From NCBI GenBank assembly GCA_030612045.1, contig JAUWOP010000002.1, forward strand, positions 5,894-69,893: DNA of 64,000 bases, given 5' to 3'. The DNA comes from Chloroflexota bacterium. GTDB taxonomy: Bacteria; Chloroflexota; Dehalococcoidia; UBA2247; JAUWOP01. The translations under genes and the position numbers were made by a program. Within the stretch, counting starts at the first letter, position 1; each line of letters starts with the position of its first letter. Shown here one piece after another: positions 2,651 through 57,240 of the stretch. The notes under the pieces are model-generated. The model worked only from the letters and a program-made list of their open reading frames with translations. It was not told the origin of the DNA and searched no databases.

Positions 2651-3232
2651 ATGCTGTTGATAGTTGATAACTATGATTCCTTTGTCTATAACCTTGCTCA
2701 GTATGCAGGAGAACTGGGTTGGGAACCCTTAGTCTACCGTAATGATAAGCTCCGCATGATGGAGATCGAACAACTGACTCCTAGCCACATCATTATTTCT
2801 CCAGGACCTCGTACTCCTCTGGAGGCAGGAATATCCAACGAGGTTATCCGTCACTTTGAAGGTAGGATTCCTATTCTGGGAGTTTGCCTGGGTCATCAAT
2901 GTATTGGACATGTCTATGGTGGTGTGGTTACCCGCTCTCAGATTCCTGTGCATGGTAAAACCTCACTCATACACCATGATGGTAGAACTGTATTCAACGG
3001 AATCCCTAACCCATTCGAAGCCGGACGCTATCATTCCCTGATAGTTGAGCCGGACTCTCTGCCTGACTGCCTGGAAATTTCAGCATGGACTGCTGATGGG
3101 AAGATAATGGGACTGCGCCACAAAGAATATATCGTAGAGGGGGTTCAGTTCCACCCTGAATCCATTCTAACAGCGGTTGGACACACAATCTTACGGAACT
3201 TTCTGAGTCAGTCCTACCCTATCCAAGAATGA
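2651..3232 (+). CDS. anthranilate/aminodeoxychorismate synthase component II (class I glutamine amidotransferase)
   Basis: LIVDNYDSFVYNL...ILGVCLGHQCIG...VQFHPES is the TrpG/PabA GATase signature with the catalytic Cys and His. Confidence 0.8.
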   Translation: MLLIVDNYDSFVYNLAQYAGELGWEPLVYRNDKLRMMEIEQLTPSHIIISPGPRTPLEAGISNEVIRHFEGRIPILGVCLGHQCIGHVYGGVVTRSQIPVHGKTSLIHHDGRTVFNGIPNPFEAGRYHSLIVEPDSLPDCLEISAWTADGKIMGLRHKEYIVEGVQFHPESILTAVGHTILRNFLSQSYPIQE

Positions 3233-4416: not shown

Positions 4417-4564
4417 GGAATACTAGAGACAACAAGTGGAAACCGCCGATGGCTCAATTAATGCATAGCGATAACGAGGGTTGCATCTGATTTCCCATTG
4501 GAGTACCTGTTAACAGACTTTGGTTTGCTGTAACCTTCATAGTACCCGAGAAAGAAGCAAACAC

Positions 4565-4770
4565 ACATGGACGGCTGCCCACCAACGAACCATGAAAATA
4601 AGTTGTCATTGCGAGTCTTTTCCCCTTGTCATTGCGAGCAAAGCGAAGCAATCCCATCGCCACTCCCACCGCCGAGGTTGCTTCGGCACTGCGTGCCTCG
4701 CAATGACACACTATGGGGACGCTCCTCGCAATGGCAGATGTGGGGATGAGGCTATTTTCGGAATAAAGAG
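4565..4770. repeat. composite hairpin repeat array: linker module (ggctgcccaccaacgaaccatgaaaata) followed by nested GTCATTGCGAG...CTCGCAATGAC inverted-repeat unit
   Basis: Nearly identical modules recur at 20941-21030, 24817-24960, 30908-31015, 56327-56395 (inverted), 56902-57060 and 61327-61455. Each has an internal GAAGCAATC(T/C)C / GAG(A/G)TTGCTTC hairpin and ends AATGACA(N)ATGGGG. Confidence 0.85.
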
Positions 4771-4839
4771 TTTGCTATTCAGTAGCCTTGTCCTTATGAT
4801 ATAGTTCACTTTTGCGTATAAGAGAAGGGTGTATCAGGG

Positions 4840-6543: not shown

Positions 6544-6548
6544 AAATG

Positions 6549-6840
6549 TAACTACTCAGACAGGATAACAGGATACACATCAGGTAGAGATAGAGACCCT
6601 CCCCCCTCTATCTCTGTTGTTTGGACTGTTAGACAGTTAAACAAGGGGTTGCAACCTCTTGTTCATTTCCTCAGTGTCCTCGGTGAACTCTGTGGCTTAC
6701 CATAGTCGTTGAATGGTTGGGCTGCTGGTTTTGGTTGTCGTTAATCGTTAAAGGTCTTGACGAGTTGCGCAACCCTTTATCCTTCACCGTTCCCTTTCCT
6801 CTGTGAACTCTGTGGCTATCAATTACTGGCTGAGTAGTTA
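6549..6840. repeat. intergenic repeat cluster (family D): GTAACTACTCAG...CTGAGTAGTTAC inverted termini, with internal direct repeats CTCGGTGAACTCTGTGGCT and CTCTGTGAACTCTGTGGCT
   Basis: The GGTAACTACTCAGCC...GATAGCCACAGAG module recurs at 20855-20900, 27805-27835, 52612-52650 and 13990-14003. Confidence 0.7.
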
Positions 6841-8292
6841 CCTTATCTCTTTATGATACCTCTCCAAACCATCTAGCAAAACCCCCAGATTATAGTGGGC
6901 TTCGGCATAGTTCGGATTTACTCTCAATGCCTCCCTGAACTCAGCCTTTGCCTCTTCATACCTCTCCAAATCCTTCCCTAGTAAAATCCCCAGATTATTA
7001 TGGGCTTCGGCATAGTTCGGATTTACCCTCAGTGCCTCTCCGTATTCAGCCTCTGCCTCTTCACATCTCTCCAAATTACTTAACAAAATCCCCAGATTAT
7101 TATGGGTTTCGGCAAGGTCTGGATTTACCCTCAATGCCTCCCTGAACTCAGTCTCTGCCTCTTCACATCTCTCTAAATCCCCTAGCAAATTCCCCAGATT
7201 ACTATGGGCTTCGGCATAGTTCGGATTTATCCTCAATGCTTCCCTGTATTCAGCCTCTGCCTCTTCATGCTTCTCTAAATTCCCTAACAAAACCCCCAGA
7301 TTATTATGGGCTTCGGCAAGGTCTGGATTTATCCTCAATGCTTCCCTGTATTTAGCCTCTGCCTCTTCATGCCTCCCTAGATTCCCTAGCAAATTCCCCA
7401 GATTATTATGGGCTTCGGCATCGTTCGGATTTACTCTCAATGTTTCCCTGAACTCAGCCTCTGCCTCTTCATACCTCTCCAAATCCTTCCCTAGTAAAAT
7501 CCCCAGACTATTATGGGCTTCGGCATAGTTCGGATTTAGCCTCAGTGCCTCTCTGTATTCAGCCTCTGCCTCTTTAAAATCCTCGGCGTAGTAGCAGGCA
7601 TTGCCGCGGTAGAAATGACCCTCTGTGGTGAGATCCTTGATTTTCTTCAGCACCTCTGCCATCACAGCAGCTTCTCTCCTGGCGGCATCCGAAATCCCCT
7701 CCACCTTCCCTACAGTGCTGAGGGAAACAGGGGACTCCACGGCTACCTTTGCCGCCTCCCTAGCTTCTTCAGGCTTGATGCTGATTATGCGGGCTATCTC
7801 ATCTTCTATCTTTTCCATAGCACTCTGGAAGCTTATATTTTTCGTTAGCTCACTTATAATCATTTCCTTATCGGCATCACCGTGGTATGAAAGGATGGTC
7901 GTGCCATTCTTATCAGAAAGGGCTTCAGTAAGGTCTATATGGGCGTTTTTATTTCCAAGGGGGACAACGAACTTCTCCAGTCCGTCCAGCAGTCCCCATT
8001 CATAGGAGATGTTATGTCTCAGCTCATTATAGATGACGATACCGAAGTAGCACCTCCTCATTATCTCCCTGAGTCCCTCATCCGTTTTCACTCCTGCCGA
8101 TATCTCTCTCCCCGTGTGAACCTCAAACCCCCTCCCCTTAAGATAATCTATCAAGATGCGCTCTATCCGGCTTGGATTATCTCCCGATGTAAATGCGAGG
8201 GCTAAGAATACGGACTTGGGGTTAACCCTCTGCTCAGTTTCCATATTAATTCTCCGTCCTCCGTAGCTGCTAATAAAAGGAGAGTTGGTCAA
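6838..8292 (-). CDS. TIR-like (flavodoxin-fold) N-terminal domain protein with nine C-terminal TPR repeats
   Basis: The N-terminus SVFLALAFTSGDN...IERILIDYLKGRGFEVHT...CYFGIVIYNELRHNISYEWGLLDG resembles TIR/DUF1863-type domains. The C-terminus has nine 34-aa repeats of the form NPNYAEAHNNLGxLLGxLERxEEAEAEYREALR. The repeats are near-identical at the DNA level. Confidence 0.55.
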   Translation of the reverse strand: MTNSPFISSYGGRRINMETEQRVNPKSVFLALAFTSGDNPSRIERILIDYLKGRGFEVHTGREISAGVKTDEGLREIMRRCYFGIVIYNELRHNISYEWGLLDGLEKFVVPLGNKNAHIDLTEALSDKNGTTILSYHGDADKEMIISELTKNISFQSAMEKIEDEIARIISIKPEEAREAAKVAVESPVSLSTVGKVEGISDAARREAAVMAEVLKKIKDLTTEGHFYRGNACYYAEDFKEAEAEYREALRLNPNYAEAHNSLGILLGKDLERYEEAEAEFRETLRVNPNDAEAHNNLGNLLGNLGRHEEAEAKYREALRINPDLAEAHNNLGVLLGNLEKHEEAEAEYREALRINPNYAEAHSNLGNLLGDLERCEEAETEFREALRVNPDLAETHNNLGILLSNLERCEEAEAEYGEALRVNPNYAEAHNNLGILLGKDLERYEEAKAEFREALRVNPNYAEAHYNLGVLLDGLERYHKEIR

Positions 8293-8346
8293 ATTTCCTT
8301 CATCGAGTTAAATTGGCTTCGACAGCCTGATTTAATAGGTGACTTA

Positions 8347-11241: not shown

Positions 11242-11925
11242 ATGACTATAGACAGGGTGGTTGTCAGTTGTGAAGAGGCAGTGGCAGATATTCCAGATGG
11301 CGCTACCATCCTGTTTGGTGGAGTAGCAGCCAGAGGCACACCCGATCACCTGATTGTAGCACTAGCTAGAAAAGGCACCAGGGATATAACGGCCATAACT
11401 ATTGAGTGTACTGGTGGATGGGGTTCCTCCGATGATATATCTCTTCTAATTGAGACAGGACAAGTTAAAAAGGTGATCACTTCCTACGCCGTCTCAATCG
11501 TGCTCTCAAAAATCAACGCTTTTGAGAGGAGGTATCGAGAGGGGGACATTGAATTGGAGATGGTTCCCTTCGGTACGATGGCAGAAAGGATTCGCTGTGC
11601 GGGAGCAGGTCTGGGAGGGGTCTACGTGCCTACAGGGGTAGGCACGCTTATGGAGGAGGGAAAGGAAAAGAGGGTCATCAATGGTAAAGAGTATCTCCTT
11701 GAGTTGCCTCTACACGCCGATTTTACCCTGATTAAAGCCTACAAGGCTGACAGGATGGGTAACCTGACCTACAGGGTATCAGCGAGAAATATGAACCCAG
11801 TTATGGCAACGGCAGCTCGAGTAACCATTGCCGAGGTTGAGGAGATTATAGAGACAGGGAAACTTGACCCCGAAACTATTGTTACCCCGGCAATTTATGT
11901 ACACCGTGTAGTAGAAATACGCTGA
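11242..11925 (+). CDS. 3-oxoacid CoA-transferase subunit A
   Basis: Glutaconate/3-oxoacid CoA-transferase A signature, adjacent to subunit B. Confidence 0.8.
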   Translation: MTIDRVVVSCEEAVADIPDGATILFGGVAARGTPDHLIVALARKGTRDITAITIECTGGWGSSDDISLLIETGQVKKVITSYAVSIVLSKINAFERRYREGDIELEMVPFGTMAERIRCAGAGLGGVYVPTGVGTLMEEGKEKRVINGKEYLLELPLHADFTLIKAYKADRMGNLTYRVSARNMNPVMATAARVTIAEVEEIIETGKLDPETIVTPAIYVHRVVEIR

Positions 11926-11939
11926 AGGGGAAGACAGCC

Positions 11940-12605
11940 ATGATGAAGAATAGGCTAAGTGAAGAGACAATCGCTATGCGAGTAGCTAAGGAGATTGAAG
12001 ACGGTTTTTTTATCAATCTAGGGATTGGTATCCCTACTCTGGTCTCCGATTTCGTTCCTGAAGATAGGATGGTGATGTTCCAGTCGGAGAATGGTATTCT
12101 AGGTATGGGGGGACTCTTCCCTGCAGGAGAGGGAGACTTCGACCTGGCTAATATGTCCGGGCAGTCCGTAAAGCTCGTGCCTGGCGCCTCTTTCTTCGAT
12201 TGTGTCTACTCCTTCGACATGATTAGAGGCAAACATCTCGATGCGGCTGTATTGGGGGGATTTCAGGTATCAGAGAAGGGTGACCTGTCGAACTGGATGC
12301 TGAACGAGAGAAAAGTGGGTGGGGTAGGAGGGGCAATGGATGTAGCAGTAGGTGCCAAGAGGCTTTTCATCGCCATGACGCATACTGATAAGAACGGGAA
12401 TGCCAAAATAGTCAAGGAATGCACCCAGCCTGTTACCGCCCAAAGGTGTGTAAACACAATATTTACCGACTTGGCGGTTATTGAGGTAACTGAGGAAGGG
12501 CTATTACTGAAAGAAATAGCCCCCGGTTGGCAGGTAGAGGAGGTTCAAGCACTCACTGAACCCAGGCTTCTAGTAAGTAGCGACCTTAGAGAGATTACCC
12601 TCTAG
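11940..12605 (+). CDS. 3-oxoacid CoA-transferase subunit B
   Basis: ENGxLGxG motif (SENGILGMGG) carrying the catalytic Glu. Confidence 0.8.
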   Translation: MMKNRLSEETIAMRVAKEIEDGFFINLGIGIPTLVSDFVPEDRMVMFQSENGILGMGGLFPAGEGDFDLANMSGQSVKLVPGASFFDCVYSFDMIRGKHLDAAVLGGFQVSEKGDLSNWMLNERKVGGVGGAMDVAVGAKRLFIAMTHTDKNGNAKIVKECTQPVTAQRCVNTIFTDLAVIEVTEEGLLLKEIAPGWQVEEVQALTEPRLLVSSDLREITL

Positions 12606-20910: not shown

Positions 20911-21045
20911 GTTTATAGAGTTCATTGGGTTCATTACGAGCCTTTCCCCTTTGTCATTGCGAGCGAAGCGAAGCAATCTCAGTGGGGGGAGGGGCGATGA
21001 GATTGCTTCGTCGCTAGCGCTCCTCGCAACGACATGGGGATGATG
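20855..21045. repeat. repeat cluster: family D, family C and one GTCATTGCGAG hairpin unit
   Basis: See the family descriptions above. 20941-21030 is a single A-type hairpin. Confidence 0.8.
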
Positions 21046-21100
21046 CTCCGCACAAATTCTCCTATAGAGACGATAGCCAGGTGAGAATGAATCAGACAAT

Positions 21101-24799: not shown

Positions 24800-25160
24800 A
24801 GGTAATCGTTCACCTGTGTCATTGCGAGCCCTTTCCCCCTGTCATTGCGAGCGAAGCGAAGCAATCTCATCGTTACTTCCCCCGCCGAGATTGCTTCGGC
24901 ACTGCGTGCCTCGCAATGACAGATTATGGGGACGCTCTTCGCAATGACAGATGTGGGGATCAGTCTATTTTCAGAGCAAAGAATCTCATTGGAGTGGAGA
25001 TGATGAGTTTATAGAGTTTGTAGTGTTATAGAGTTGATGGGGTTGGTGGGGAACTCAATAAACTCAATAAACTCAAAGAACTCATCGAGGGAGGGATGTC
25101 ATTTCGACCGAAGGGAGAAATCTTGAGCGTAAGATTCCTCACATGCGTTCGGAATGACAA
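24800..25160. repeat. dense intergenic repeat array: two nested A-type hairpin units, a family C unit and a degenerate B-type unit (25097-25158)
   Basis: The flank ATCGTTCACCTGTGTCATTGCGAG is shared with the 30903 copy. Confidence 0.85.
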
Positions 25161-27957: not shown

Positions 27958-29406
27958 CTATTCTTCCTCAATGTCCTGGTAGATGCTGCTGAACTGGGTC
28001 AGGGCAGATTCGAGGTTGTCGGCAATTTCCCGGGCGAGGATGTCTGGCTCTGGTAAGTTTGCGGAATCCTCAAGGCTTTCATCCTTTAGCCAGAATATGT
28101 CGAGGTTTACCTTGTCCCGTTGCATCAACTCCTCATAAGTGAAAGCTCTAAATCTCTCGGCTTCTTTTCTTTCGTGTCGATTCTGGGGATTGTAGCAGCG
28201 GACAAAATCTAGCAGGTCATCATCTCGCAAGGTATTGGTTTTAAGAGTAAAGTGCATATTGGTTCTAAAATCATATATCCAGAGCTTGTCTGTCCATGGC
28301 TTTTCGCTGCCCGGCTTGCGGTCAAAGAAGAGGACATTTGCCTTGACGCCAGGGCGGTAGAATACACCTGTGGGCAACCTCAAAAGAGTATGAACATCAC
28401 ACTCCTGAAGTAGTTTCATTCTCACTGTCTCACCGGCGCCACCTTCAAAGAGGACATTGTCAGGCACGACTATAGCAGCCCGACCATTAGTCTTGAGGAG
28501 TGTTTTCACATGCTGGAGGAAATTCAATTGTTTATTAGATGTGGTCGCCGAGAAGTCTGGACGTTCATAGACCTGTGATTCCTTATCAGCCTTTCCCTCA
28601 CCATTAACTATGGTGTAGCTGCTTTTCTTGCCGAAGGGCGGATTGGTGAGTACCATATCAAAACGCTCACCGGGGTCAGCTATGAGGCTATCCCCGCTTT
28701 CAACAGGAGTCTCAATCCCATGTAGATAGAGATTCATCACACAGAGTCTGACCACACCATCAACAATATCCTTCCCTCTGAAAGCGTTGAATTTAAGGAA
28801 TTCCTTCTGGTCTATGTCCAGGTTATTGTGTTTGGGGATATAGTCATAGGCTGCCAGCAAAAAGCCACCTGTGCCACAGGCAGGGTCGCAAATAATCATT
28901 TCCGGCTCAGGTCTCATAGCCTCAACAATAGCTTTGATGAGAGCCCTAGGGGTGAAATACTGCCCAGCGCCGCTCTTAACATCCTCGGCGTTCTTCTGCA
29001 GAAGACCCTCATATATCTCCCCTTTGACATCGACATCCAGCCCAACCCAGGTTTCGGCATTGATAAGTTCAATAAGGCGCTTGAGCTTGGCTGGGTCTTG
29101 AATCCTGCTTTGAGATTTGCGAAAGATAATGCCGAGCATACCGCTCTCTTTGCTCAGGGACTCAAGGATAAGACGGTAATGAGCCTCCAGGGCGGCTCCA
29201 TCCCTCTCCCGCAGGCTTAGCCAATCAAAGCCCATGGGAATGGTTGAGGGCTTGTTGAAAGGATGCCTGGTCTGTTCATCAGCCATCTTCAGAAACAGCA
29301 GGTAAGTTAGCTGTTCCACATAGTCGCCATAGCTTACACCGTCATCACGAAGCACATGGCAGTAGTTCCACACTTTTGAGACAATTGTCGATGATTCATT
29401 GGGCAT
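27958..29406 (-). CDS. hsdM: type I restriction-modification system methyltransferase subunit
   Basis: HsdM N-terminal domain and N6-adenine MTase motif DMVLTNPPFGKK (NPPF). Confidence 0.9.
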   Translation of the reverse strand: MPNESSTIVSKVWNYCHVLRDDGVSYGDYVEQLTYLLFLKMADEQTRHPFNKPSTIPMGFDWLSLRERDGAALEAHYRLILESLSKESGMLGIIFRKSQSRIQDPAKLKRLIELINAETWVGLDVDVKGEIYEGLLQKNAEDVKSGAGQYFTPRALIKAIVEAMRPEPEMIICDPACGTGGFLLAAYDYIPKHNNLDIDQKEFLKFNAFRGKDIVDGVVRLCVMNLYLHGIETPVESGDSLIADPGERFDMVLTNPPFGKKSSYTIVNGEGKADKESQVYERPDFSATTSNKQLNFLQHVKTLLKTNGRAAIVVPDNVLFEGGAGETVRMKLLQECDVHTLLRLPTGVFYRPGVKANVLFFDRKPGSEKPWTDKLWIYDFRTNMHFTLKTNTLRDDDLLDFVRCYNPQNRHERKEAERFRAFTYEELMQRDKVNLDIFWLKDESLEDSANLPEPDILAREIADNLESALTQFSSIYQDIEEE

Positions 29407-29879
29407 TAGCCACTATTTCCCCTCAAACTTTGATCTATATACTCAACTTTCAAAAACACACCATTAAGGTGGTCAAAATCATGGTCTGTTGTTAAAAGCA
29501 AAGCGTTAATCACCGAACCTGTAGCAGCAATCCATATATCATTCTTACCCATATTTCGTGAAGATACCCCTTGAAGTAGTTTTTTTGAGGGATGTTTGCC
29601 CTGGCTATACGCATCAATTTCTGCATACTTCTCCAATATCTGATGGTCACCAATGTCAGCGAAAGGGATTTTTCCTAAGATGTCCCCGATCTTTCGCTTT
29701 TTTTCTTCACTCCACCCAAATTGTAGAGATACAGAATAGATTTCCCCAACTGTTACCACAGAAATAAGTGCAATATTGGGTGGCATGGATACCCCAAAAC
29801 GCTTCTCTACATACTCGGCGTAGCCTGCCCCTCGCACATAGCCCAGAATGATGCCCGTATCTAGGAGGTAAGTAGTCAT
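29406..29879 (-). CDS. PIN-domain nuclease (VapC-like)
   Basis: LLDTGIIL at the N-terminus and LLTTDHDF near the C-terminus give the PIN acidic residues. 157 aa. Confidence 0.7.
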   Translation of the reverse strand: MTTYLLDTGIILGYVRGAGYAEYVEKRFGVSMPPNIALISVVTVGEIYSVSLQFGWSEEKKRKIGDILGKIPFADIGDHQILEKYAEIDAYSQGKHPSKKLLQGVSSRNMGKNDIWIAATGSVINALLLTTDHDFDHLNGVFLKVEYIDQSLRGNSG

Positions 29880-30835
29880 AAGGTTTCTACGGATGCCTGC
29901 CTCAATACAGAAAGAATTTCGTCAATTGATTCTTCTCCTGGCCACTGTCCCCAAATCTCCGTCAGCGGGCTTTTGGTGCCTTGCTTTCTTTTCAATTCCT
30001 CGATTAACCTGTGAGGTGACTTTGATTCCGTAATATTCTGGAATATCTCCTCTCCAACCTCAAATGGTTTGATTATTTGTGCTTCAATAAAGCGCACCTT
30101 ACGGGAGGCATTGAAGTGAGCCGTCCCTTTAATCGTGACCTTCTTCCCCCAGAGACCTCTCATTTTCCCCTCTGTAATTAAGGGTGAGTCTGCCCTCCCA
30201 CGTACCTTTTGACCGTCTTCTAACTCAAGTTGGAACTGCCTCCGAGCATGTTCAATCAAATCGAATAAACCTGCAACGACAATAGCGTGAGACTGCGGTG
30301 TTTCTGTCTCCATGTGGCTTATCTTCTCTAACTCTTCGCGCCCTATCTTGAAATTATCCCTTTCCCTGATCTTGGAATTTACCTCAAGCTCACTCATGTA
30401 TTTCTTAAGAGGAGATCTGAAAGAGAGCAGAGCGTTTAACACTCCTCGGTCATAGTATTCGCTTTCCAATTGCTCGGAGGTTGCATCTGATACTGACCTG
30501 GAAAGCAAGGACATCGCAGTATCTTCCGGATTGGGCAGTGTATACCAAAGGGTCTGCTGCTGAACCTGTTCGGGGGCTGATTCTGCCAAAGTCGGCGCTT
30601 CAATCTCCAGTACTGTTGAGCCTTTACTGATTCCGGCAATCGTGAATTCAAGGGATTTACTTAACCATTCTGGATTCTTTCCTCTTTTCACGCTCCTGCC
30701 TTCGATCGAAAGGCGTAGTGCTCGTTCGCATCCCTGCAAAAGTGTATCAGAGATATCCCTGAGAGCTCTCAGGGGGATAGTGCCTTCTGGCGTTTTAAGC
30801 CCGGTAATTCTAATCGTGTAATGGATGCCGTTCAC
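29876..30835 (-). CDS. hypothetical protein (319 aa), immediately upstream of and overlapping the PIN gene
   Basis: Long ORF with good codon usage and no recognisable motif. Overlaps the PIN ORF by 4 nt (29876-29879). Confidence 0.5.
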   Translation of the reverse strand: MNGIHYTIRITGLKTPEGTIPLRALRDISDTLLQGCERALRLSIEGRSVKRGKNPEWLSKSLEFTIAGISKGSTVLEIEAPTLAESAPEQVQQQTLWYTLPNPEDTAMSLLSRSVSDATSEQLESEYYDRGVLNALLSFRSPLKKYMSELEVNSKIRERDNFKIGREELEKISHMETETPQSHAIVVAGLFDLIEHARRQFQLELEDGQKVRGRADSPLITEGKMRGLWGKKVTIKGTAHFNASRKVRFIEAQIIKPFEVGEEIFQNITESKSPHRLIEELKRKQGTKSPLTEIWGQWPGEESIDEILSVLRQASVETL

Positions 30836-30902
30836 TTTCTGCCACCCCCTCTTTATTCTACCCTAACTCACAGTGCCTGTCCCCTTTTTGCCTTCTCCTC
30901 CC

Positions 30903-31015
30903 TTGTGATCGTTCACCTGTGTCATTGCGAGCGAAGCGAAGCAATCTCGTTCTCCCCTTACCGAGATTGCTTCGTCGCTACGCTCCTCGCAATGACATGA
31001 GAGCGGGTGAACGGT
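30903..31015. repeat. A-type hairpin unit with outer CGTTCACC...GGTGAACG inverted flanks
   Basis: It overlaps the 3' end of hsdS and supplies its last residues (...MSLRGA) and stop codon. Confidence 0.8.
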
Positions 31016-32495
31016 TACCCTCCCTTATCCTTTCCAGCAGCTTGTCAGCAGGTTCGTCGCTGGGGTCTTGAGGAACCAGTTTACCCTCAAAGGCTCTCTT
31101 TAGAATACTCTGGCGCAATCTTACCGACTGCTTGAGGCTCTGGTCAACGGCTTTTCCTATCTCATCAGCTACCGAAAGGCGGCGCTCGATTTCCTCAACG
31201 ATTTTGTGTTGTTCGGTGAATGAGGATAATGGAAGTGGAAGGATTCGCAGGTGTTCGAGAGGAATGAACTTCTGTGTCGTTCCCTTCGAAAGTTTCCCCT
31301 TTTCCAATATCTCATTGAATGTCCAGCTTGCCAACCAAAACTTGAGGTATTTTGACCTGAGAAAGGATTGATTCTTCTTAAATAACCCCACGTTTTTAAT
31401 ACTAAAGAGCCTGTCTGTCTGAACTACTACAGGATTTCCCACCGTTCCTATCATTGCAAAGAGTATGTCCCCATTCTCAACCCCAGAACGTACACTAATT
31501 TTTTTGTGGTCTTCGATGCTAATATTCTTGGTCGTTGTGAAGTCTAAGCCATCTTCTTTGAGGTTTTTTGATGTCACCAACGGGATTCCCTCTTCAACAT
31601 ACCTAGGGGTATCGTGTGTACCATCTCTTACAGAAGAACAAACATCACTTGTTATCGTCCACACCCACCCCTCTGGCAAATCGGGCAAATCGGATGTATC
31701 CAATGACGGAAGTTCTTTGTATTTGCCCTGGGCATTTTTTGGGTGTTCTCTCTTGATGCGCTCCAGGAGCGCGGAGGCGGGCTCCAGTTCTCCCTTGTGG
31801 TCCTCTCGCCACTCCTGCGTCAGTTTTCCCTGGAAGGCATCCCTCAAAACTGCCTGGCGGTAGCGTTTTAACTGAGCCTTTATTTTCTTCAGCGCCGCTA
31901 CCCCGGCATCCAGCCTGGTGAAAAGCCCCTCAATCCTGGCAACGATGCGGTGCTGCTCAGGGAGGGGCGGGAGAGGGATGGGAATTTGGTGCATATAATG
32001 AACTGGCACCCTTAATTGACCTGCAGAGCCTGTCATATTTCTTTGGGCATCCCTTCTGAGGTCTTCTCGTATCAAAAAGAAGAAGAGCAACTTCCTTGGA
32101 AATGATTCAGGCAATCTGATAACATGGAACTCAGTTGAACCGAAACCGATACCGTTTTTCAAACCATGAGCTATTGCCACTTTCCCGTTTTCCATACAAG
32201 GTGTAATTTTGGCAAAAAGTAAGTCACCCTCTATGAATGGTGTATACCCTTTTTTTACTTCTGATAATCTCCTCGTAAAGAATAAATTGAGATGTCCTGT
32301 TAATTCCTCAACGCATTTCATCGGTAGAAATGCAACTTCTGTGTCGTCTGTGAGATATTCGCCTGTAAATTTCGGATTGATTTCTGCAATCTCCCCCAAC
32401 CTCATCCACACCCACCCCTTAGGCAATTGACGAGTGTTCACTCCTTCATCTCCTACGCTGCTAGCTCTTGAATATGTTCGTCCCGGCAACTCCAC
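30978..32495 (-). CDS. hsdS: type I restriction-modification system specificity subunit
   Basis: Two target-recognition domains, each followed by a conserved PLPPLPEQHRIV / LPLPLSSFTEQHKIV coiled-coil repeat. The true start may be the internal MRLGEIAEI (~32405). Confidence 0.85.
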   Translation of the reverse strand: MELPGRTYSRASSVGDEGVNTRQLPKGWVWMRLGEIAEINPKFTGEYLTDDTEVAFLPMKCVEELTGHLNLFFTRRLSEVKKGYTPFIEGDLLFAKITPCMENGKVAIAHGLKNGIGFGSTEFHVIRLPESFPRKLLFFFLIREDLRRDAQRNMTGSAGQLRVPVHYMHQIPIPLPPLPEQHRIVARIEGLFTRLDAGVAALKKIKAQLKRYRQAVLRDAFQGKLTQEWREDHKGELEPASALLERIKREHPKNAQGKYKELPSLDTSDLPDLPEGWVWTITSDVCSSVRDGTHDTPRYVEEGIPLVTSKNLKEDGLDFTTTKNISIEDHKKISVRSGVENGDILFAMIGTVGNPVVVQTDRLFSIKNVGLFKKNQSFLRSKYLKFWLASWTFNEILEKGKLSKGTTQKFIPLEHLRILPLPLSSFTEQHKIVEEIERRLSVADEIGKAVDQSLKQSVRLRQSILKRAFEGKLVPQDPSDEPADKLLERIREGNRSPALMSLRGA

Positions 32496-33220
32496 AGGAT
32501 ATCTTTCACATCATATCGACGAAGGGCATTGATAAGGTCTGGATTTAACGGGCGTTCGGTATCATTTAGGACCGCATAGGCAGTAGATTCGGGCAGTCTT
32601 ACCTTTTTGGTATCAGTCCATGCAAAGATAAGCGTTGTGATACTCTGACGGTCAGGCCGATTAATGGCTCTGAGTACTCTTTCAGGTTTTACACGGGAGG
32701 CAGGAATTACGAAGTCGAAAGAATTGTCCAAGCCGCTTTTTCCGGTGAATTTGACTGAAGGGGTAAAGCGAATATCATGGGCACGCAGATATGTCTCAAC
32801 ATCTTCTCGAAAAATACTCATCACCATTGGGGCAGCCATCACAAAGAGGTCATTTATTGCGAGCATGGCTTGAATCAGGTTGTGTTTCTTCTGCGGAAAG
32901 TTATCAGGGCGTGCCTCTACAATAAGCTCCTCACCCTGAAGACGAACTCCAAAGCCATTTAAAACAGCATTAAGCATCTGCCGTCTCTTCTCCGTCGTGA
33001 ACTCACATCCACTCAAGCGGAGGTCTCGGATAATGTAGCCATCGTCTGTGAGGGTAAATCCCTCTTTAGACCGCTTGATATATATCTGTAGATAGTCATT
33101 GTGACGGTCAACAAAGGGAGTGGTAATCTCACAAACACCATCTATATCCTGAATACTCATCTTTTGACCAAGCCATCTAATATAGACTTGAACAAGATCA
33201 CTGCACTCATTTGAAATCAT
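32453..33220 (-). CDS. hypothetical protein (255 aa) embedded between hsdR and hsdS
   Basis: ORF with no recognisable catalytic motif. Its start overlaps the upstream ORF stop (ATGA, 33217-33220). Confidence 0.5.
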   Translation of the reverse strand: MISNECSDLVQVYIRWLGQKMSIQDIDGVCEITTPFVDRHNDYLQIYIKRSKEGFTLTDDGYIIRDLRLSGCEFTTEKRRQMLNAVLNGFGVRLQGEELIVEARPDNFPQKKHNLIQAMLAINDLFVMAAPMVMSIFREDVETYLRAHDIRFTPSVKFTGKSGLDNSFDFVIPASRVKPERVLRAINRPDRQSITTLIFAWTDTKKVRLPESTAYAVLNDTERPLNPDLINALRRYDVKDILWSCRDEHIQELAA

Positions 33221-33714
33221 AGCAACCTCCTTTGAATCAAAGGCTGTTCAATAACATTACAAAATCGAAAGAAGTCCTCAAGAGTTGAAAACAGATCGTT
33301 TGTTTGGGGGAACTTATTGCTTGGTGCTGGAATTGCCCACTTATCCATAAATCCTTCCACATATAAGTGAAGATGAGGGGTTGGTAAGGTGACACCATTA
33401 TAAGGTTCGAGGAAAGAAAGTGGCACTGCCTCAACTTCTGGATTCGGGTGAGGGGAACCATCTACATCCAACCGCACAAGGATGAATGTGCCTTGATACC
33501 GTTCTTGATATGAGCATTTTGTCAGTCGAATTTGACCTCTGTTTACATCTATTAGGAAAGTCTCTATCTCATCAGTTGAAACAATGGGAATGACTAAAGA
33601 GCTCCCTGGGTAGGGGAAGAAATAGTTCTCGTTTCTGGCTCTTTTTTTTGGCATCTTTATTAAGAAATCTGCTTCACTCTGCGAAGGCATTCTGCTCCTT
33701 CCTAATTTGCTCAA
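33217..33714 (-). CDS. hypothetical protein (165 aa) embedded between hsdR and hsdS
   Basis: ORF starting 7 nt after the hsdR stop, translationally coupled to the next ORF. Confidence 0.45.
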   Translation of the reverse strand: MSKLGRSRMPSQSEADFLIKMPKKRARNENYFFPYPGSSLVIPIVSTDEIETFLIDVNRGQIRLTKCSYQERYQGTFILVRLDVDGSPHPNPEVEAVPLSFLEPYNGVTLPTPHLHLYVEGFMDKWAIPAPSNKFPQTNDLFSTLEDFFRFCNVIEQPLIQRRLL

Positions 33715-33720
33715 TTTGCT

Positions 33721-36468
33721 TCATGCTACCAGCACCTTATTCAGCTCTTCTAGAATACTGTCCAGCTCATGTTCGAAGAGATTGTATGCCTTTATTGCTC
33801 CACCCTTCCCAGCAAATGGCGTAAGCTCAAAGTGGTCTATGCTGATGCTTAAAGAAGCAGCGATGTGGTATTTTATCATCTCCAGCCACTCCATCTGCTC
33901 TGGGGTAAATTCTCGTCCTAAGCTCGCCTGCTCGGAAATCCATTCATTGAATCGCTTATCTACTGTCTCAGAGAAGGGTTCCAGCACATCAGTTTCCCCT
34001 ACAGCAAAGCGTATGAGTGAGATGATATTGGTTAGGAGTTTCTGGGTTCCAGCGTCCCTGACCTTGGAGCTCTCCAAATGTTCATAAGCCTGCCACAATA
34101 GCTCAGGTGTAAGATTATAAGGTGGCTTTTTGATAGCACTGGCAAGCTGCTTTATCTCCTGGTAGGTCAAACGGCGCTTGCTGTAAGGCTTACTATAAAT
34201 CACCTGCAAAGCGGTAAGCTCGTCCTTGTTCTCCTCTATGAATTTGTGAAAGGTATCAACGATGGTTCGAGCCTTTTCTTTCGCCTGAGCATCAAAGCCA
34301 GCAAAAATTAGCTTGTCCTGACTCACGGTATCAATAACCTGCTCACTTTCTCTCTTGAGGTCAATGAGCATATCACGCAGTTTAGGATTATCAAAGGGAC
34401 TGCAAGCAATTGTAGTCAGTTCATTACTAGCTTTCTTAACCTGTTCCTCTGTGGGTGCTTCTGTGTTGAAGAGCTCTTTCGCCTTATCTATTTGCTTGTC
34501 CGGGTCAACGGCGTCCAGCAAGCTATTGGTGAGCTGTTTTGGAGATATACCCCCTGTGGCACTTTGGATTTGCTGGCGGTCTTCTTCCTCAATCTCCTTA
34601 TCCAGTTGAGCGAGTCTTCCTGCCAGAGAAGTGAGCATGTCCTCATCTCTATTACCCAGAGCAACGGACATAAGCAGCTTATCGAAGGGGAGACTCTTGT
34701 TCCTTTCCAGAGGTTGGGAGTCTTGTTTCTCATTCTCGCACACGCCGACGGCATCCACGATTACGAAATTTGTCTTGTGAGATGCATCCGGGGTAACGGC
34801 GTTAAAATCCGTGGGCAGGATTGTCCTGCTGCCGCGTCCTTTCATCTGCTCAAACAGCAGCCGAGATTTAACATCTCTCATAAAGATGATGCACTCCAGA
34901 GGTCTAATATCGGTCCCGGTAGCAATCATATCCACTGTCACCGCGATGCGGGGATGATACGAGTTACGAAAGCTGGTAATCAGGTCCTCGGGCTTCTCGG
35001 TCTTGTAGGTTATCTTCTTACAGAGTTCATTTCCCTTACCGAATTCCTCCCTCACAATATGGACAATATCCTCAGCATGGGAATCGCTCTTGGCAAAGAT
35101 TAGGGTTTTGGGGACCTCAGTCCTGCCGGGGAATATCTCGGTAAAGAGTTTCTCCTTGAAGGTTTTGACCACTGTTCTTATCTGGTCTGGAGCAACTATG
35201 CTGCGGTCGAGTTGCTCTGGGGGGTAATCGAGAGCCTCATCCAACTGCTCCCAGCGGATTTGCCTGGTGAGCTTGTTTCGCTTATCTATATAATAGTCTG
35301 CTTTTATGGTGCTTCCCTCTTTGGTAATCTTTGTCTGGATGAGGTAAACATCGTAGCCTACATTAACGCCATCTGCCACAGCCCGCTCGTGGCTGTATTC
35401 CATAACCAGGTTCTGATTGAAAAAGCCCAGGGTTTGCTTTGATGGAGTTGCGGTGAGTCCGATAATAAAGGCATCAAAATACTCCAGCACCTGACGCCAG
35501 AGGTGATATATTGAGCGGTGACATTCATCGGTGATGATGAAGTCAAAGGTCTCAATGGGGATAGCGGGGTTATAGGAGATTTCTTTCGGTGGAAGAACTC
35601 CCAGTGGCATGCTGGGGAGAGACTGTTCCTCAAGCTCGGCATCAAAGTCTGGCTCTCCCTTGAGCATGGAATAGAGCCGCTGTATGGTGGTGATACAAAC
35701 TCGACTTACTGGGTCCAGGGTATTAGAGGTAACATGCTGGATATTATAGAGCTCAGTAAATTTCCTGCCGTCATCGGGTGTATCATATTGCTGGAACTCC
35801 CTTCTTGTTTGGCGGCCCAGGTTACTCCTATCAACAAGGAAGAGAACCCTTTTAGCATTGGCGAACTTTATCAGACGGTAAACAGAGCTCACGGCGGCAT
35901 AGGTCTTACCAGTTCCCGAGGTCATCTGGATAAGCGCTCGCGGCCTTTCCCCTGCAAAGGATTCCTCAAGATTTCCAATCGCCTCAATTTGGCAATCCCT
36001 CAATCTGTCAGTTTTTAGCGGAGGCATAGTTTTGAGTCTGGCTCTGAGAGTGTCCTGCTGAGTTAGCCATTCATTAAGCGTTTCGGGACGATGAAAGCTA
36101 AACACCCTTCGAGAGCGGGGTGCTGGGTCTCTTAAATCTCTGAAGGAGGTTTCTGTGCCTGTGCTCTCATAAACAAAGTGAAGAGGCTCCTGGACATGGG
36201 GGAGATTTTCAGGGGAAGCTGTTGAGTATTTTCCAGACTGTTCAGCTACACCACTTAAGGTAGTACCGACTGGTTTAGCCTCCACAACCCCAACAGCTTT
36301 TCTGTCAACAAAAAGGACATAATCAGCCGTTCCAGATTTCAGGGGAAATTCACGGACGGCTACTCCTGGAGAAGCTCCGAGATTCAGTTGCCGCAGGTCC
36401 TGAACAGCCCAACCGGCAGTCTCCAGCATCTGGTCAATCCTTTGTCTTGCCTTTTCCTCTGGTTTCAT
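33721..36468 (-). CDS. hsdR: type I restriction enzyme R subunit (helicase-nuclease)
   Basis: N-terminal nuclease domain, SF2 helicase motifs MTSGTGKT (Walker A) and DECHRS (DEAH), and a C-terminal domain. 915 aa. Confidence 0.9.
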   Translation of the reverse strand: MKPEEKARQRIDQMLETAGWAVQDLRQLNLGASPGVAVREFPLKSGTADYVLFVDRKAVGVVEAKPVGTTLSGVAEQSGKYSTASPENLPHVQEPLHFVYESTGTETSFRDLRDPAPRSRRVFSFHRPETLNEWLTQQDTLRARLKTMPPLKTDRLRDCQIEAIGNLEESFAGERPRALIQMTSGTGKTYAAVSSVYRLIKFANAKRVLFLVDRSNLGRQTRREFQQYDTPDDGRKFTELYNIQHVTSNTLDPVSRVCITTIQRLYSMLKGEPDFDAELEEQSLPSMPLGVLPPKEISYNPAIPIETFDFIITDECHRSIYHLWRQVLEYFDAFIIGLTATPSKQTLGFFNQNLVMEYSHERAVADGVNVGYDVYLIQTKITKEGSTIKADYYIDKRNKLTRQIRWEQLDEALDYPPEQLDRSIVAPDQIRTVVKTFKEKLFTEIFPGRTEVPKTLIFAKSDSHAEDIVHIVREEFGKGNELCKKITYKTEKPEDLITSFRNSYHPRIAVTVDMIATGTDIRPLECIIFMRDVKSRLLFEQMKGRGSRTILPTDFNAVTPDASHKTNFVIVDAVGVCENEKQDSQPLERNKSLPFDKLLMSVALGNRDEDMLTSLAGRLAQLDKEIEEEDRQQIQSATGGISPKQLTNSLLDAVDPDKQIDKAKELFNTEAPTEEQVKKASNELTTIACSPFDNPKLRDMLIDLKRESEQVIDTVSQDKLIFAGFDAQAKEKARTIVDTFHKFIEENKDELTALQVIYSKPYSKRRLTYQEIKQLASAIKKPPYNLTPELLWQAYEHLESSKVRDAGTQKLLTNIISLIRFAVGETDVLEPFSETVDKRFNEWISEQASLGREFTPEQMEWLEMIKYHIAASLSISIDHFELTPFAGKGGAIKAYNLFEHELDSILEELNKVLVA

Positions 36469-36639
36469 ACAGCTATAGCTCTAGGGAGATAAGTTCGGAT
36501 AGGACTATTTCCCACATATAATAGCACACAAAAGCTCACCTTGTATTGAAAGAGACTGTCAATAGTATTTATTACTAAATTATCGGAATACGATAAGTTA
36601 GGTATTGACATATTTCATATAGCGGATTACAATGTAAAT

Positions 36640-36939
36640 GTGGAGGTAATATTTGCTACTGAAGATTTAGACCGTTTGGAAGTAGATGGGTCTTTTACGG
36701 CTGGATTTAACCAAACGTTAGTAAAAGCATACCGCAATAAAATCAATATTATCAGGCAAGCTGTTGATGAAAGGCTCTTTTACGCTATTAAATCTCTTCA
36801 CTTTGAGAAGCTGGAAGGTAAACGAAAACATCAGCACTCTATACGCTTAAACAATAAATATAGCCTGATTGTCGAATTGGTCGAACGCAAACCGGAAAAC
36901 AAAGCCGTTAGGATAGTAGAAATCACAGATTATCATTAG
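36640..36939 (+). CDS. higB: HigB-like (RelE/ParE superfamily) toxin, GTG start
   Basis: The KSLHFEKLEGKRKHQHSIRLNNKYSLIVEL motif is typical of the HigB/plasmid-maintenance-killer family. The toxin gene precedes the antitoxin-like gene, as in hig loci. Confidence 0.7.
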   Translation: MEVIFATEDLDRLEVDGSFTAGFNQTLVKAYRNKINIIRQAVDERLFYAIKSLHFEKLEGKRKHQHSIRLNNKYSLIVELVERKPENKAVRIVEITDYH

Positions 36940-36957
36940 AGAAAGGAGGAATCTGAC

Positions 36958-38106
36958 ATGATGACTGCTATGAAGGAGAGAATACCGGCCGAAGGCTTCC
37001 TGCCTGGAGATTTAATCAAGGGGGAGTTGAAGGAAAGGGGTTGGACACAAGAGGACTTAGCAGAAATACTAGGGCGTACTACTAGTGCCGTAAATGAGAT
37101 AATTACTGGCAGAAGAGGTATTACGGTTGATACTGCAAAGGGTCTAGGAGAAGCGCTTGGAACTGGGGCACAGTTTTGGCTTAACATGGAATCAGCTTAT
37201 CGCTTGTCTTTGGAAAGAACTAGGCCGGAATCTGTATCTCGCAAGGCAGTTTTGTACGAAGCAGCACCAATTCGTGCCATGATAAAGAGAAATTGGATTG
37301 AATCCTCGACAAATATTGAAGTTCTGGAGCAAAGGCTCCGTGAATTTTTCGGAACTTCGGATTTGTCTCAAATTCCGCGTTTGAACTGTATGACCAGAAA
37401 GTCTACAGAGGAACTTACACCAGCACAAAGAGCCTGGCTATTTCGAGCAAAAAATCTTGCTATGGCTGTTCATGCAGGAAAATACACAAAAAGTCGTCTG
37501 AATATGGCATTGGAACGATTGAAGGATATGAGAGCTAACGAGGCAGATATTAGGCTGATACCTAAGGTCTTAGCCGATGCTGGTATAAGGTTGCTTATTA
37601 TTGAACCTTTTCCTCAATCTAAGATAGATGGTGCTAGTTTTTGGGTCAATGGGTCACCAGTCATAGCATTATCGCTTAGGTATGATAGAATAGATTCTTT
37701 TTGGCATACGTTAATGCATGAGATAGGACATGTAAAGAACGAAGATGGATTAATTGACAACTGTATGATTCTGGATACCGATTTGCTTGATGAATACAAT
37801 GATGTTAAACCCTACGAAAGAGCGGCGGATGAATTTGCGGTTAATTTCTTAGTTCCACAAAAAGAATTAAACGATTTTATAGCTCGTATTCAACCAATAT
37901 ATTCTAAGTCCAAAATCGTAGGCTTTGCGAACAGGATAAAAGTTCATCCGGGCATAGTGATAGGACAATTACATCATCGAGGTAAGGAACGAGGTGGTCT
38001 TGATTATTCCCATAGTCGTGAGATGCTGGTTAAGGTTAGACATCTTATTACAAGAGCAGCGACGACCGATGGATACGGACAAATATTGTCTTTGAATCTA
38101 AGTTGA
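36958..38106 (+). CDS. HigA-like HTH-XRE domain fused to an ImmA/IrrE-family zinc metallopeptidase domain
   Basis: N-terminal HTH (KERGWTQEDLAEILGRTTSAVNEIITG). C-terminal region with HEIGHV (HExxH) and a downstream Glu, typical of COG2856/ImmA. 382 aa. Confidence 0.7.
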   Translation: MMTAMKERIPAEGFLPGDLIKGELKERGWTQEDLAEILGRTTSAVNEIITGRRGITVDTAKGLGEALGTGAQFWLNMESAYRLSLERTRPESVSRKAVLYEAAPIRAMIKRNWIESSTNIEVLEQRLREFFGTSDLSQIPRLNCMTRKSTEELTPAQRAWLFRAKNLAMAVHAGKYTKSRLNMALERLKDMRANEADIRLIPKVLADAGIRLLIIEPFPQSKIDGASFWVNGSPVIALSLRYDRIDSFWHTLMHEIGHVKNEDGLIDNCMILDTDLLDEYNDVKPYERAADEFAVNFLVPQKELNDFIARIQPIYSKSKIVGFANRIKVHPGIVIGQLHHRGKERGGLDYSHSREMLVKVRHLITRAATTDGYGQILSLNLS

Positions 38107-38115
38107 GGTAAGAGT

Positions 38116-38574
38116 ATGACTTACAATGAACAATTACAGAGGCTTGTGAACAAATACATCGAAGCTGGCGAAATATGGCCTGCAACCTCGCATGAATTGG
38201 CTGCTTGGGCTTTGAATAATAAGTTGTGGGCACCCCAAAAGAGTGAAGTTTTAAATATATGTGCAGAACAACTAGCTCGTGCTATGCGAGAAGAATATAT
38301 AGTCGACCCGCAAGGTCGCAAGGTAAGATCGAAGCATGCTGCTAGAATCAAACAGGCAGTCTTATGGGATGATATTAGAACAGCGAGTCGTGAACACATG
38401 CAGATAGCATTTCAGCAGAGAAGGCAGCAAATAGTTGGTGATTGCCACCAGCTCAAATTGGACGTAGACAGCTACAATGAAAATAAGAGTGCTGGCATAC
38501 CAATCCAGATGGTATTTGATTTTACTTTCGATTTGATTGAAATGGAGAAGAAGCCAGAACTAGCCAAAGCCTAA
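38116..38574 (+). CDS. hypothetical protein (152 aa) directly downstream of the HTH-peptidase gene
   Basis: ORF 10 nt after the upstream stop, likely co-transcribed. No recognisable motif. Confidence 0.4.
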   Translation: MTYNEQLQRLVNKYIEAGEIWPATSHELAAWALNNKLWAPQKSEVLNICAEQLARAMREEYIVDPQGRKVRSKHAARIKQAVLWDDIRTASREHMQIAFQQRRQQIVGDCHQLKLDVDSYNENKSAGIPIQMVFDFTFDLIEMEKKPELAKA

Positions 38575-56446: not shown

Positions 56447-56935
56447 ATGGTAGAGCCACTGGAGCAGATTTTCGCTTCGTGTAAAGTTGAAAGGAAAGAG
56501 CTTATTCCCTTACTACAGGAAATTCAGGAAAAGCTGGGCTATCTCTCTGATGATGCCATGAAGGCTGCTGCCGAATTTCTGCATATTCCTCCGAGTGCTG
56601 TCTATGGAGTGGCTACCTTCTATAACCAGTTCCGTTTTGTTCCTGCGGGGAAACATCCCCTGAAGATCTGCCTGGGGACTGCCTGTCACATACAGGGGAG
56701 CAAGCTCATTATGGAAGCTATGGAGCGAGAGTTGGATATTAAGGCGGGGAATGTTACCCCTGACCATGAGTTCAGCCTGGATAGGGTTGCCTGTGTGGGG
56801 TGCTGCGCTCTGGCTCCAGTAATAATAGACAAAAAGACAGTCTACCCCCGGATGACCCCCTTCAAGGTAGAGGAGGTGCTGGCTCTTCTCAAGGAAGAAA
56901 ATGCCCATGGGCGGTTGCCCACCAACGAACCATGA
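56447..56935 (+). CDS. NuoE-like thioredoxin-fold [2Fe-2S] ferredoxin subunit (NADH dehydrogenase 24 kDa / HoxF-HydC type)
   Basis: The four Cys (C..C...C..C: CLGTACHIQG...CVGCCALAP) of the NuoE family. The C-terminal tail HGRLPTNEP and the stop codon are supplied by the repeat linker module. Confidence 0.8.
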   Translation: MVEPLEQIFASCKVERKELIPLLQEIQEKLGYLSDDAMKAAAEFLHIPPSAVYGVATFYNQFRFVPAGKHPLKICLGTACHIQGSKLIMEAMERELDIKAGNVTPDHEFSLDRVACVGCCALAPVIIDKKTVYPRMTPFKVEEVLALLKEENAHGRLPTNEP

Positions 56936-57240
56936 AAATAGGCTGTCATTGCGAGCGAAGCGAAGCAATCTCGGTGGGGCGGCGATGAGATTGCTTCGTC
57001 GCTACGCTCCTCGCAATGACACATTATGGGGGCGTGCCTCGCAATGACAAATGTGGGGTCAGTCTATTTTCGGAATAAACACTCATGGGCGGCTGCCCAC
57101 CAACGAACCATGAAAATAGTGCTTCCTTGCAACGACTTTGCCTGTCATTCCTGCGGAAGCAGGAATCCATGTGGGGTGGGTGTAGATTCCCGCCTGCGCG
57201 GGAATGACATAGTCTATTTTCGAAGCAAAGAGTGTGAATC
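56902..57240. repeat. 340-bp repeat array: linker, nested A-type hairpin unit, linker (CTATTTTCGGAATAAACACTCATGGGCGGCTGCCCACCAACGAACCATGAAAATAG), B-type two-hairpin unit, linker
   Basis: Same module order (in a different arrangement) as 61195-61455. Confidence 0.85.

Follow-up and report, generated by a model that had tools for sequence, protein, structure and literature searches.

The stretch analyzed here comprises 64,000 nucleotides (nt) of contig JAUWOP010000002.1 of a Chloroflexota bacterium (assembly GCA_030612045.1, positions 5,894 to 69,893 of the forward strand; hereafter the window). It contains a type I restriction-modification (RM) locus in which four non-hsd genes are located between hsdR, hsdS and hsdM. 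A first-pass annotation of the sequence had put the four genes forward as the best candidate for an undescribed defence module, in an RM operon of atypical architecture. The questions raised by the locus are whether the four genes belong together, to which families they belong, and which role they may have beside a restriction system.

Seven co-directional open reading frames (ORFs) were found on the minus strand at positions 27958-36468, in the order hsdR, an ORF of 157 amino acids (aa), an ORF of 255 aa, hsdS, an ORF of 319 aa, a PIN-domain gene and hsdM (Table 1). The gene content and order given by the first-pass annotation were borne out by the ORF coordinates and the profile matches. The identical seven-gene layout was identified on contigs assembled independently from two other samples, which excludes an assembly chimera. 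The four inserted genes form two unrelated cassettes of two genes each. The pair between hsdR and hsdS is already catalogued as PDC-M24, and the pair between hsdS and hsdM is designated ORF319-PIN in the following. With moderate confidence we favour the interpretation that the locus is a small defence island, in which an intact type I RM system is combined with two autonomous mobile cassettes that would serve as a second line of toxin-antitoxin-like abortive infection, by the mechanism proposed below.

For the analysis of the RM family, 80 metagenomic loci with an hsdM 66-88% identical to that of the window were examined as its closest relatives. Their gene order is hsdR-hsdS-hsdM. A gap of more than 450 nt was counted as cargo. 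Of 63 loci, the hsdS-hsdM spacing was 100 nt or shorter in 31 and filled with co-directional cargo in 27. For the hsdR-hsdS spacing (44 loci) the corresponding numbers were 31 and 5. The gaps of the relatives contained 53 ORFs, nearly all of them co-directional, including MNT/HEPN pairs, AbiEi/AbiEii, Fic/DOC, DUF3800, AAA_15/AAA_21 ATPases (PtuA/AriA/OLD-like), HATPase_c_4, Nmad3 and IS200 transposases, and this census of the cargo slots of one RM family provides a list of further candidates. It is well established that type I RM operons can harbour embedded defence genes, a pattern described as 'guilt-by-embedding' (Payne et al., 2024, bioRxiv 10.1101/2024.01.29.577857). Given the base order of the family and the frequency of cargo at both junctions, the architecture is not atypical, and the locus is an ordinary instance of the known rule that defence cassettes are nested in type I RM operons. 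It shares with other embedded RM cargo the co-directional non-hsd genes between hsd genes, the mobile cassettes of one to three genes and the variable slots. There is no difference in kind; in the window both junctions are filled, with different cassettes, and a trio of genes resembling PD-lambda-2 is found beside them.

The four genes as one system were rejected. None of the 80 closest hsdM relatives contained ORF319, PIN or either PDC-M24 gene, let alone all four, and the PDC-M24 pair was absent from all 80 ORF319 loci fetched. For the same reason, ORF319-PIN is not an obligate component of this RM family. Occupancy of the junctions was found to be variable. In one relative (L009; hsdR 70% and hsdM 76% identical to the window), both slots are filled: the hsdR|hsdS slot (2947-8300) contains MNT-HepT, a DRT UG21 reverse transcriptase (1e-112), a trypsin-like protease and a PRTase-CE protein, and the hsdS|hsdM slot contains ORF319-PIN, with hsdS split into two half-genes. 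In a second relative (L008), ORF319-PIN is present and the hsdR|hsdS junction is empty. On the basis of this variable occupancy across the relatives, both junctions are cargo slots with rapid turnover and the window represents one combination among many.

As a separate observation, a Verrucomicrobiota relative (L019) was found to carry a Fic/DOC gene, PDC-S23-like, between PIN and hsdM (11919-12323), so that a third cassette can be stacked in the same slot.

The RM genes themselves were found to be complete. HsdR (915-aa ORF; 902 aa according to gene callers) matched Pfam EcoEI_R_C (1.5e-40), ResIII (5e-34), Helicase_C and, weakly, HSDR_N (2.8e-5), as well as PADLOC REase_I (1.7e-52) and NCBIfam PRK11448 (1e-122, under the cut-off of that model). 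Its helicase domains are of the ResIII/SWI2-SNF2 kind, and its translation contains the DECH helicase motif of superfamily 2 and a D...EAK nuclease motif. From the C-terminal EcoEI_R_C domain, HsdR is classified as type IB/EcoAI-like, with a predicted N-terminal PD-(D/E)XK nuclease domain. HsdM (482 aa) matched N6_Mtase (1.5e-65), HsdM_N (2.9e-11) and PADLOC MTase_I (5.6e-191), and its NPPF motif was found as LTNPPFG. In HsdS, Methylase_S was detected in two stretches, and PADLOC Specificity_I (7e-133) covered residues 20-492 of 505. The hsd gene matches have E-values of 1e-17 to 1e-191, well outside the range of chance matches. Since the DECH, D...EAK and NPPF motifs are present and all three subunits have the expected domains, the type I RM operon is intact as judged from its sequence.

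The seven genes had been described as tightly coupled by overlaps of 1-4 nt. This holds true for three junctions, namely 157/255 (4 nt), 319/PIN (4 nt) and PIN/hsdM (1 nt), whereas the remaining junctions are gaps of up to 142 nt. The spacing between hsdR and M24A, the 157-aa gene, is 6-30 nt depending on the M24A start. The likely start is ATG 33690, which is preceded by the Shine-Dalgarno sequence AGGAAGGAG, and gene callers also give a length of 157 aa. For hsdS, GTG 32441 is the likely start (alternative: ATG 32405), leaving a gap of about 11 nt to M24B, the 255-aa gene; an overlap of 43 nt is only apparent and results from the maximal ORF of 505 aa. The spacer between hsdS and ORF319 has a length of 142 nt and contains a long hairpin. 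A scan of the locus for promoters and terminators yielded only background level. Co-transcription of the cassettes with the hsd genes is probable.

The Pfam and PADLOC searches proposed in the first-pass annotation identified the first cassette and left ORF319-PIN without a strong match. M24A matched Pfam DUF6978 (1.3e-36 to 1.6e-36) and PADLOC PDC-M24A (2.2e-49; 4-143 of 146 profile positions). M24B matched Pfam DUF1828 (9e-31) and DUF1829 (5e-28) and PADLOC PDC-M24B (6.3e-105; 3-255 of 255 positions). Thus, two of the three large proteins that were thought to lack a recognisable motif belong to described families, and the statement applies to ORF319 at the sequence level. The two genes are adjacent and co-directional, the start of M24B overlapping the stop of M24A by 4 nt, and the same A-B adjacency was found in eight out of eight PDC-M24 loci fetched. 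PDC-M24 was drawn as a candidate from cassettes embedded in RM, BREX and DISARM systems and is listed in a supplementary table as a cassette with 153 instances ('Assign as candidate PDC-M24'; Payne et al., 2024). The window pair is a member of this candidate system, with full-length matches, the order A then B, the 4-nt overlap and the position within a type I RM operon; no difference was detected. No paper naming PDC-M24 was found in the literature library searched, and DUF1828 and DUF6978 were mentioned only incidentally. The locus therefore provides a natural context for a catalogued candidate, to which a fold-level description of M24B and of its Cys/His/Glu-rich partner is added here.

In M24A, the residues C59, H81, N83, PH106-L-H108, E112 and C144 are invariant. 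The conserved Cys, His and Glu residues suggest a metal site. For M24A, no Pfam family beyond DUF6978 was found at E-values up to 5, and searches of PDB sequences with M24A and M24B gave no match or noise only. Structure prediction, a further check named in the first-pass annotation, was carried out for M24B and ORF319. The M24B model has a pLDDT (predicted local distance difference test) of 93.3 and shows two domains linked by a helix of 40 residues. DUF1828 was modelled as a T3SS-chaperone/XisI-like fold and DUF1829 as a PD-(D/E)XK restriction-endonuclease-like fold. At the expected catalytic positions, D169 is found in 82% and E180 in 80% of the sequences, R181 in 93% (lysine expected), and position 203 (D203) is always acidic. 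The most conserved residues of M24B are P35, D38, N41, D42 and D59 in DUF1828 and Q117 and D124 in the helix. Going by the model, the DUF1829 domain may be DNA-binding and possibly DNA-cleaving.

The M24B family is large, with 3619 word-index matches and 1867 representatives at 50% identity. The contexts of four relatives showed the pair inside a helicase/methylase RM system, after a decayed EcoEI-type hsdR with hsdM downstream, and alone in bacterial and Methanosarcinales genomes. In one locus (L088, 1-10579), PDC-M24 is located between a ResIII helicase and an N6_N4 methylase (type III-like RM), beside a phage integrase, an S24 peptidase repressor-like gene and PglZ. M24B was identified on 54 IMG/VR contigs, 43 of which carry an M24A homologue next to it, sometimes on the opposite strand. 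Only 2 of the 54 viral contigs contain hsd genes.

In about ten of the viral loci (L190, L195, L196, L198, L201, L212, L214, L215, L220 and L226), M24A is located downstream of M24B on the opposite strand. Toxin-antitoxin pairs with translational coupling are not usually arranged in this way.

A DUF1829 protein other than that of the window is the non-kinase component of the validated system HipAD/DS-6 (HipA-like kinase + DUF3037-DUF1829), for which binding to the partner and to DNA was proposed. M24B has DUF1829 in common with it. The differences are the partner, a kinase in HipAD and DUF6978 here, and the N-terminal domain, DUF3037 in HipAD and DUF1828 in M24B. Since the HipAD protein is seen as a partner and DNA binder, either of the two M24 proteins could be the effector.

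For ORF319, no family match was found in Pfam (E-values up to 5) or NCBIfam. Weak partial PADLOC matches were obtained to PDC-M32A (8e-7, residues 48-251) and PDC-M63B (6e-4). Distant members of the ORF319 family (L039, L083 and L086) also weakly match PDC-M32A/PDC-M63B components, the PDC-M63B matches ranging from 6e-4 to 7e-6 and covering the N-terminal ~70-190 residues. This hints at an N-terminal domain shared among candidates embedded in RM, BREX and DISARM systems and used with different effectors. The AlphaFold2 model, based on 25 homologues (pLDDT 81.8; pTM, the predicted template modelling score, 0.75), consists of a confident and novel N-terminal alpha/beta domain (~1-180), a five-stranded OB-fold barrel that is SSB/RPA-like (~183-257), and a low-confidence stretch at 271-300, modelled as a disordered linker, followed by a terminal helix. 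In the family alignment, the motif G296-x-W-P-G-x-E302 just before this helix is invariant. A PDB search with the ORF319 profile yielded noise apart from weak matches of IF-1/PriB to the OB region.

The PIN protein matched Pfam PIN (1.1e-7) and, with 19.9 bits against a cut-off of 80 bits, NCBIfam TA_toxin_VapC; no PADLOC family was matched even at E-values up to 1. All 63 aligned syntenic partners retain the acidic residues D7, E46, D114 and D132, and from these residues the protein is predicted to be a catalytically competent nuclease.

Full-length homologues of ORF319 (~310-320 aa) number at least 80 and are without annotation; when one genome per species was scanned, relatives were confirmed at 127 or more sites. 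The neighbourhood counts refer to 80 fetched loci out of these, 50 of which have at least 4 kb on both sides and are termed well-flanked. The 80 loci span Chloroflexi, Acidobacteriota, Verrucomicrobiota, Planctomycetota, Gemmatimonadota, Myxococcota (including Sorangium), Bacteroidota and others. In 77 of them the PIN gene directly follows ORF319, and in 39 of 73 pairs the ORF319 stop and the PIN start overlap (-4 or -1 nt). Within 6 kb, hsd genes were found in 20 of the 50 well-flanked loci. The window order hsdR/hsdS-ORF319-PIN-hsdM was reproduced in 13 of 80 loci. In other loci, whose operons belong to another hsd family and have the order hsdR-hsdM-hsdS, the pair comes directly after hsdS. 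The neighbours in the 30 well-flanked loci without hsd include MADS, type IIG RM, AriA-like ATPases and LRR/EAD11-trypsin conflict genes and are mostly ordinary genes. A phage-borne nature of ORF319-PIN was considered as well and rejected, as no relative was found in IMG/VR.

Comparison with described systems places the pair near several of them. VapB-type antitoxins have a conserved disordered C-terminal tail and are encoded beside a PIN gene. By analogy, ORF319, with its conserved and presumably disordered tail next to PIN, resembles such an antitoxin. Further features in common with VapBC are the four conserved acidic residues of the PIN protein and a translationally coupled upstream partner. 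In contrast to the small, DNA-binding VapBC antitoxin, the partner in the window is a protein of 319 aa in which a novel N-terminal domain precedes an OB fold, and no RHH, AbrB, HTH or Phd domain was detected in it (Pfam, E-values up to 5); in addition, the PIN protein misses the VapC family score. HEC-03 (ABC ATPase + PIN), which was also found by embedding, likewise combines PIN with a large non-antitoxin partner (Payne et al., 2024), and so does DS-5 (PIN + DUF5830/AcrIF4-like), where the partner of the PIN effector is likewise large and unlike antitoxins (DefensePredictor, PMC13092281). No PADLOC HEC match was found for ORF319 or PIN, ORF319 is not an ABC ATPase, and it did not match DUF5830 (Pfam, E-values up to 5). 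No ATPase domain and no PrrC/RloC model matched ORF319 or PIN in Pfam, PADLOC or NCBIfam. With regard to PDC-M32 and PDC-M63, ORF319 scores far under family level and matches one component of each; the M32A model has 375 positions compared to 319 aa. As the PIN partner matches no PADLOC model, the effector differs from those of PDC-M32 and PDC-M63. A literature search revealed no paper on a defence pair of PIN and an OB-fold protein. ORF319-PIN appears to be a new family built on a well-known scheme, in which a PIN nuclease is combined with a large partner protein, and the locus brings out a conserved pair that is absent from Pfam, NCBIfam and PADLOC v2.

The interpretation as a defence island draws on what was observed here: gene content, families, synteny, mobility, RM association, predicted folds and conserved catalytic residues. 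An anti-phage function of the cassettes, the assignment of the neutralising partner and the trigger given in the following are proposed. Both cassettes would most likely act as toxin-antitoxin-like abortive-infection modules behind the RM system. ORF319 would hold back the PIN RNase, its C-terminal GxWPGxE tail probably being the inhibitory part, in analogy to VapB tails, which occupy VapC. Upon infection, the OB fold might bind nucleic acid arising from the infection (ssDNA or RNA), or ORF319 might be lost, and PIN would be released. The released PIN would cleave tRNA, rRNA or mRNA, and translation would stop. If validated, an OB-fold-partnered PIN system would be added to the defence repertoire, and a tractable example would be at hand for studying how large non-canonical partners restrain RNase effectors.

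A more specific version, regarded as possible but doubtful, is that ORF319-PIN is a new and phylogenetically widespread anti-phage system, recruited by preference right behind hsdS as a back-up of type I RM. The OB fold would then be the sensor of phage single-stranded nucleic acid, or of a phage SSB or anti-restriction factor, and would free the PIN RNase. In that case, the N-terminal domain, being weakly akin to PDC-M32A/PDC-M63B, would be a sensor module shared by several embedded systems.

Several observations weigh against the defence-island interpretation. In M24B, conservation of the canonical PD-(D/E)XK residues reaches only 80-82%, with Arg replacing Lys, and the protein may bind DNA without cutting it, a mode also put forward for the DUF1829 component of HipAD. 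PDC-M24 has the status of a candidate only (Payne et al., 2024). RPA14/32, RMI2 and Ten1 are among the top structural matches of the ORF319 OB fold; OB folds also mediate protein-protein contacts, so that nucleic-acid sensing by ORF319 is not assured. About 60% of the ORF319-PIN pairs are located among ordinary genes without a defence neighbour, and none of 2.9 million IMG/VR viral contigs contained an ORF319 relative. Furthermore, the 142-nt spacer with its hairpin could uncouple the transcription of the distal genes.

Alternatively, the cassettes could be plain addiction (toxin-antitoxin) modules that stabilise the RM island, or hitch-hikers in a permissive, well-expressed slot, in either case without a part in phage immunity. 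Both are mobile, translationally coupled two-gene pairs, each with a component of the nuclease type, housekeeping genes surround most copies of ORF319-PIN, IS200-type transposases use the same slots, and RM operons tolerate insertions between subunit genes. We consider this explanation unlikely. ORF319-PIN is strongly and repeatedly linked to type I RM (20 of the 50 well-flanked loci), always directly after hsdS, and is also found with MADS, with PARIS-like genes and with type IIG RM. The great majority of the other slot occupants come from families with a known part in defence or abortive infection, and six or seven of nine Hma-embedded candidates tested gave defence (Payne et al., 2024).

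A closer functional tie to the RM enzyme would be expected if ORF319-PIN were a guard comparable to PrrC. Contact with the Hsd complex would then keep the PIN RNase latent, and inhibition of RM by a phage anti-restriction protein would set it free. The anticodon nuclease PrrC is encoded within the EcoprrI hsd locus and provides a precedent. Nearly all PrrC genes are embedded in type I RM systems (Payne et al., 2024). The RM linkage in 40% of the well-flanked loci, the position right after hsdS whatever the hsd order, and the 1-nt overlap of PIN and hsdM in the window would fit this model. Nevertheless, it is judged improbable: about 60% of the pairs stand on their own and lack hsd genes over a distance of 6 kb, and the pair is missing from all 80 closest hsdM relatives. 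Where RM systems are associated, they come from two or more hsd families and differ in gene order, the pair also occurs beside non-type-I systems, and ORF319 itself has the traits expected of a dedicated partner or inhibitor.

Finally, the restriction-endonuclease-like fold modelled for M24B and the co-directional, closely spaced arrangement of all seven genes might suggest that the inserted proteins are accessory parts of the RM enzyme, such as additional nuclease or DNA-binding subunits. This is effectively excluded: the 80 closest RM relatives lack all four genes, M24 is also missing from L008, and the cassettes lie far from RM in 52 of 54 viral M24 loci and 30 of 50 well-flanked ORF319 loci. 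Housekeeping genes are just as improbable, no such family being matched in Pfam or NCBIfam. The inserts are neither hsd domains nor housekeeping families, and the earlier view of them as accessory modules that recur in defence operons was retained.

Table 1. Positions of the RM genes, the inserted cassettes and neighbouring features in the window.
Feature	Position	Strand	Basis and remarks
hsdR	33721-36468	-	ResIII, EcoEI_R_C, HSDR_N
PDC-M24A (DUF6978, 157 aa)	33217-33690	-	Pfam, PADLOC; maximal 165-aa ORF from TTG 33714
PDC-M24B (DUF1828 + DUF1829, 255 aa)	32453-33220	-	Pfam, PADLOC
hsdS	30978-32441	-	two Methylase_S target-recognition domains; maximal 505-aa ORF from GTG 32495
Dispersed palindromic repeat copy, ~80 nt, REP/MITE-like (repetitive extragenic palindrome/miniature inverted-repeat transposable element)	30920-31000	no strand	RNA fold, repeat alignment
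ORF319 (319 aa, PIN partner)	29876-30835	-	structure model, family alignment
PIN-domain nuclease (157 aa)	29406-29879	-	Pfam PIN
hsdM (482 aa)	27958-29406	-	N6_Mtase, HsdM_N
PD-lambda-2-like trio, divergent from hsdR	36640-38574	+	Pfam, PADLOC
Further repeat copies	~4630-4740, ~20950-21060, ~24840-24950, ~56930-57030, ~61340-61440		alignment

The hairpin in the hsdS-ORF319 spacer has a predicted RNA folding energy of -63.3 kcal/mol (z = -5.3). Its arm was matched nine times in the window, compared to 0.06 expected matches. The repeat has a length of ~80 nt and at least six copies in the window; six copies were aligned and share the core TGTCATTGCGAGGAGCGTAGCGACGAAGCAATCTC ... GAGATTGCTTCGCTTCGCTCGCAATGACA. 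The copy at the 3' end of hsdS takes up most of the 142-nt spacer and supplies the stop codon of hsdS, and the last ~13 hsdS codons are located in or beside the hairpin. Because no T-run follows the hairpin, it is not a canonical terminator. A cassette-specific regulatory element was ruled out, since the hairpin is a dispersed genomic repeat.

The trio divergent from hsdR consists of a HigB-like protein of 99 aa, a protein of 382 aa with an Xre-type helix-turn-helix domain and an M78 peptidase domain, and an ORF of 152 aa. The 99-aa protein matched Pfam HigB-like_toxin (1e-6) and no PADLOC family. For the 382-aa protein, Pfam HTH_3 and Peptidase_M78 and PADLOC PD-Lambda-2_B (2e-48) were found. 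The 152-aa ORF matched neither Pfam (E-values up to 5) nor PADLOC. PD-lambda-2 was validated as a three-component system (Vassallo et al., PMC9519451), and the gene order of the trio is compatible with the published one, with only the B component matched by PADLOC. The trio belongs to the same small defence island as the RM operon, not to the operon itself.

The complete block of operon and trio (27958-38574, 10.6 kb) is flanked by a glycosyltransferase-like gene and hisS. Its G+C content is 0.41-0.44 at 32-34 kb (M24 cassette) and at 36-39 kb (trio), compared to ~0.47-0.49 in the flanking genes. The lower values over the M24 cassette and the PD-lambda-2-like trio are compatible with a recent acquisition.

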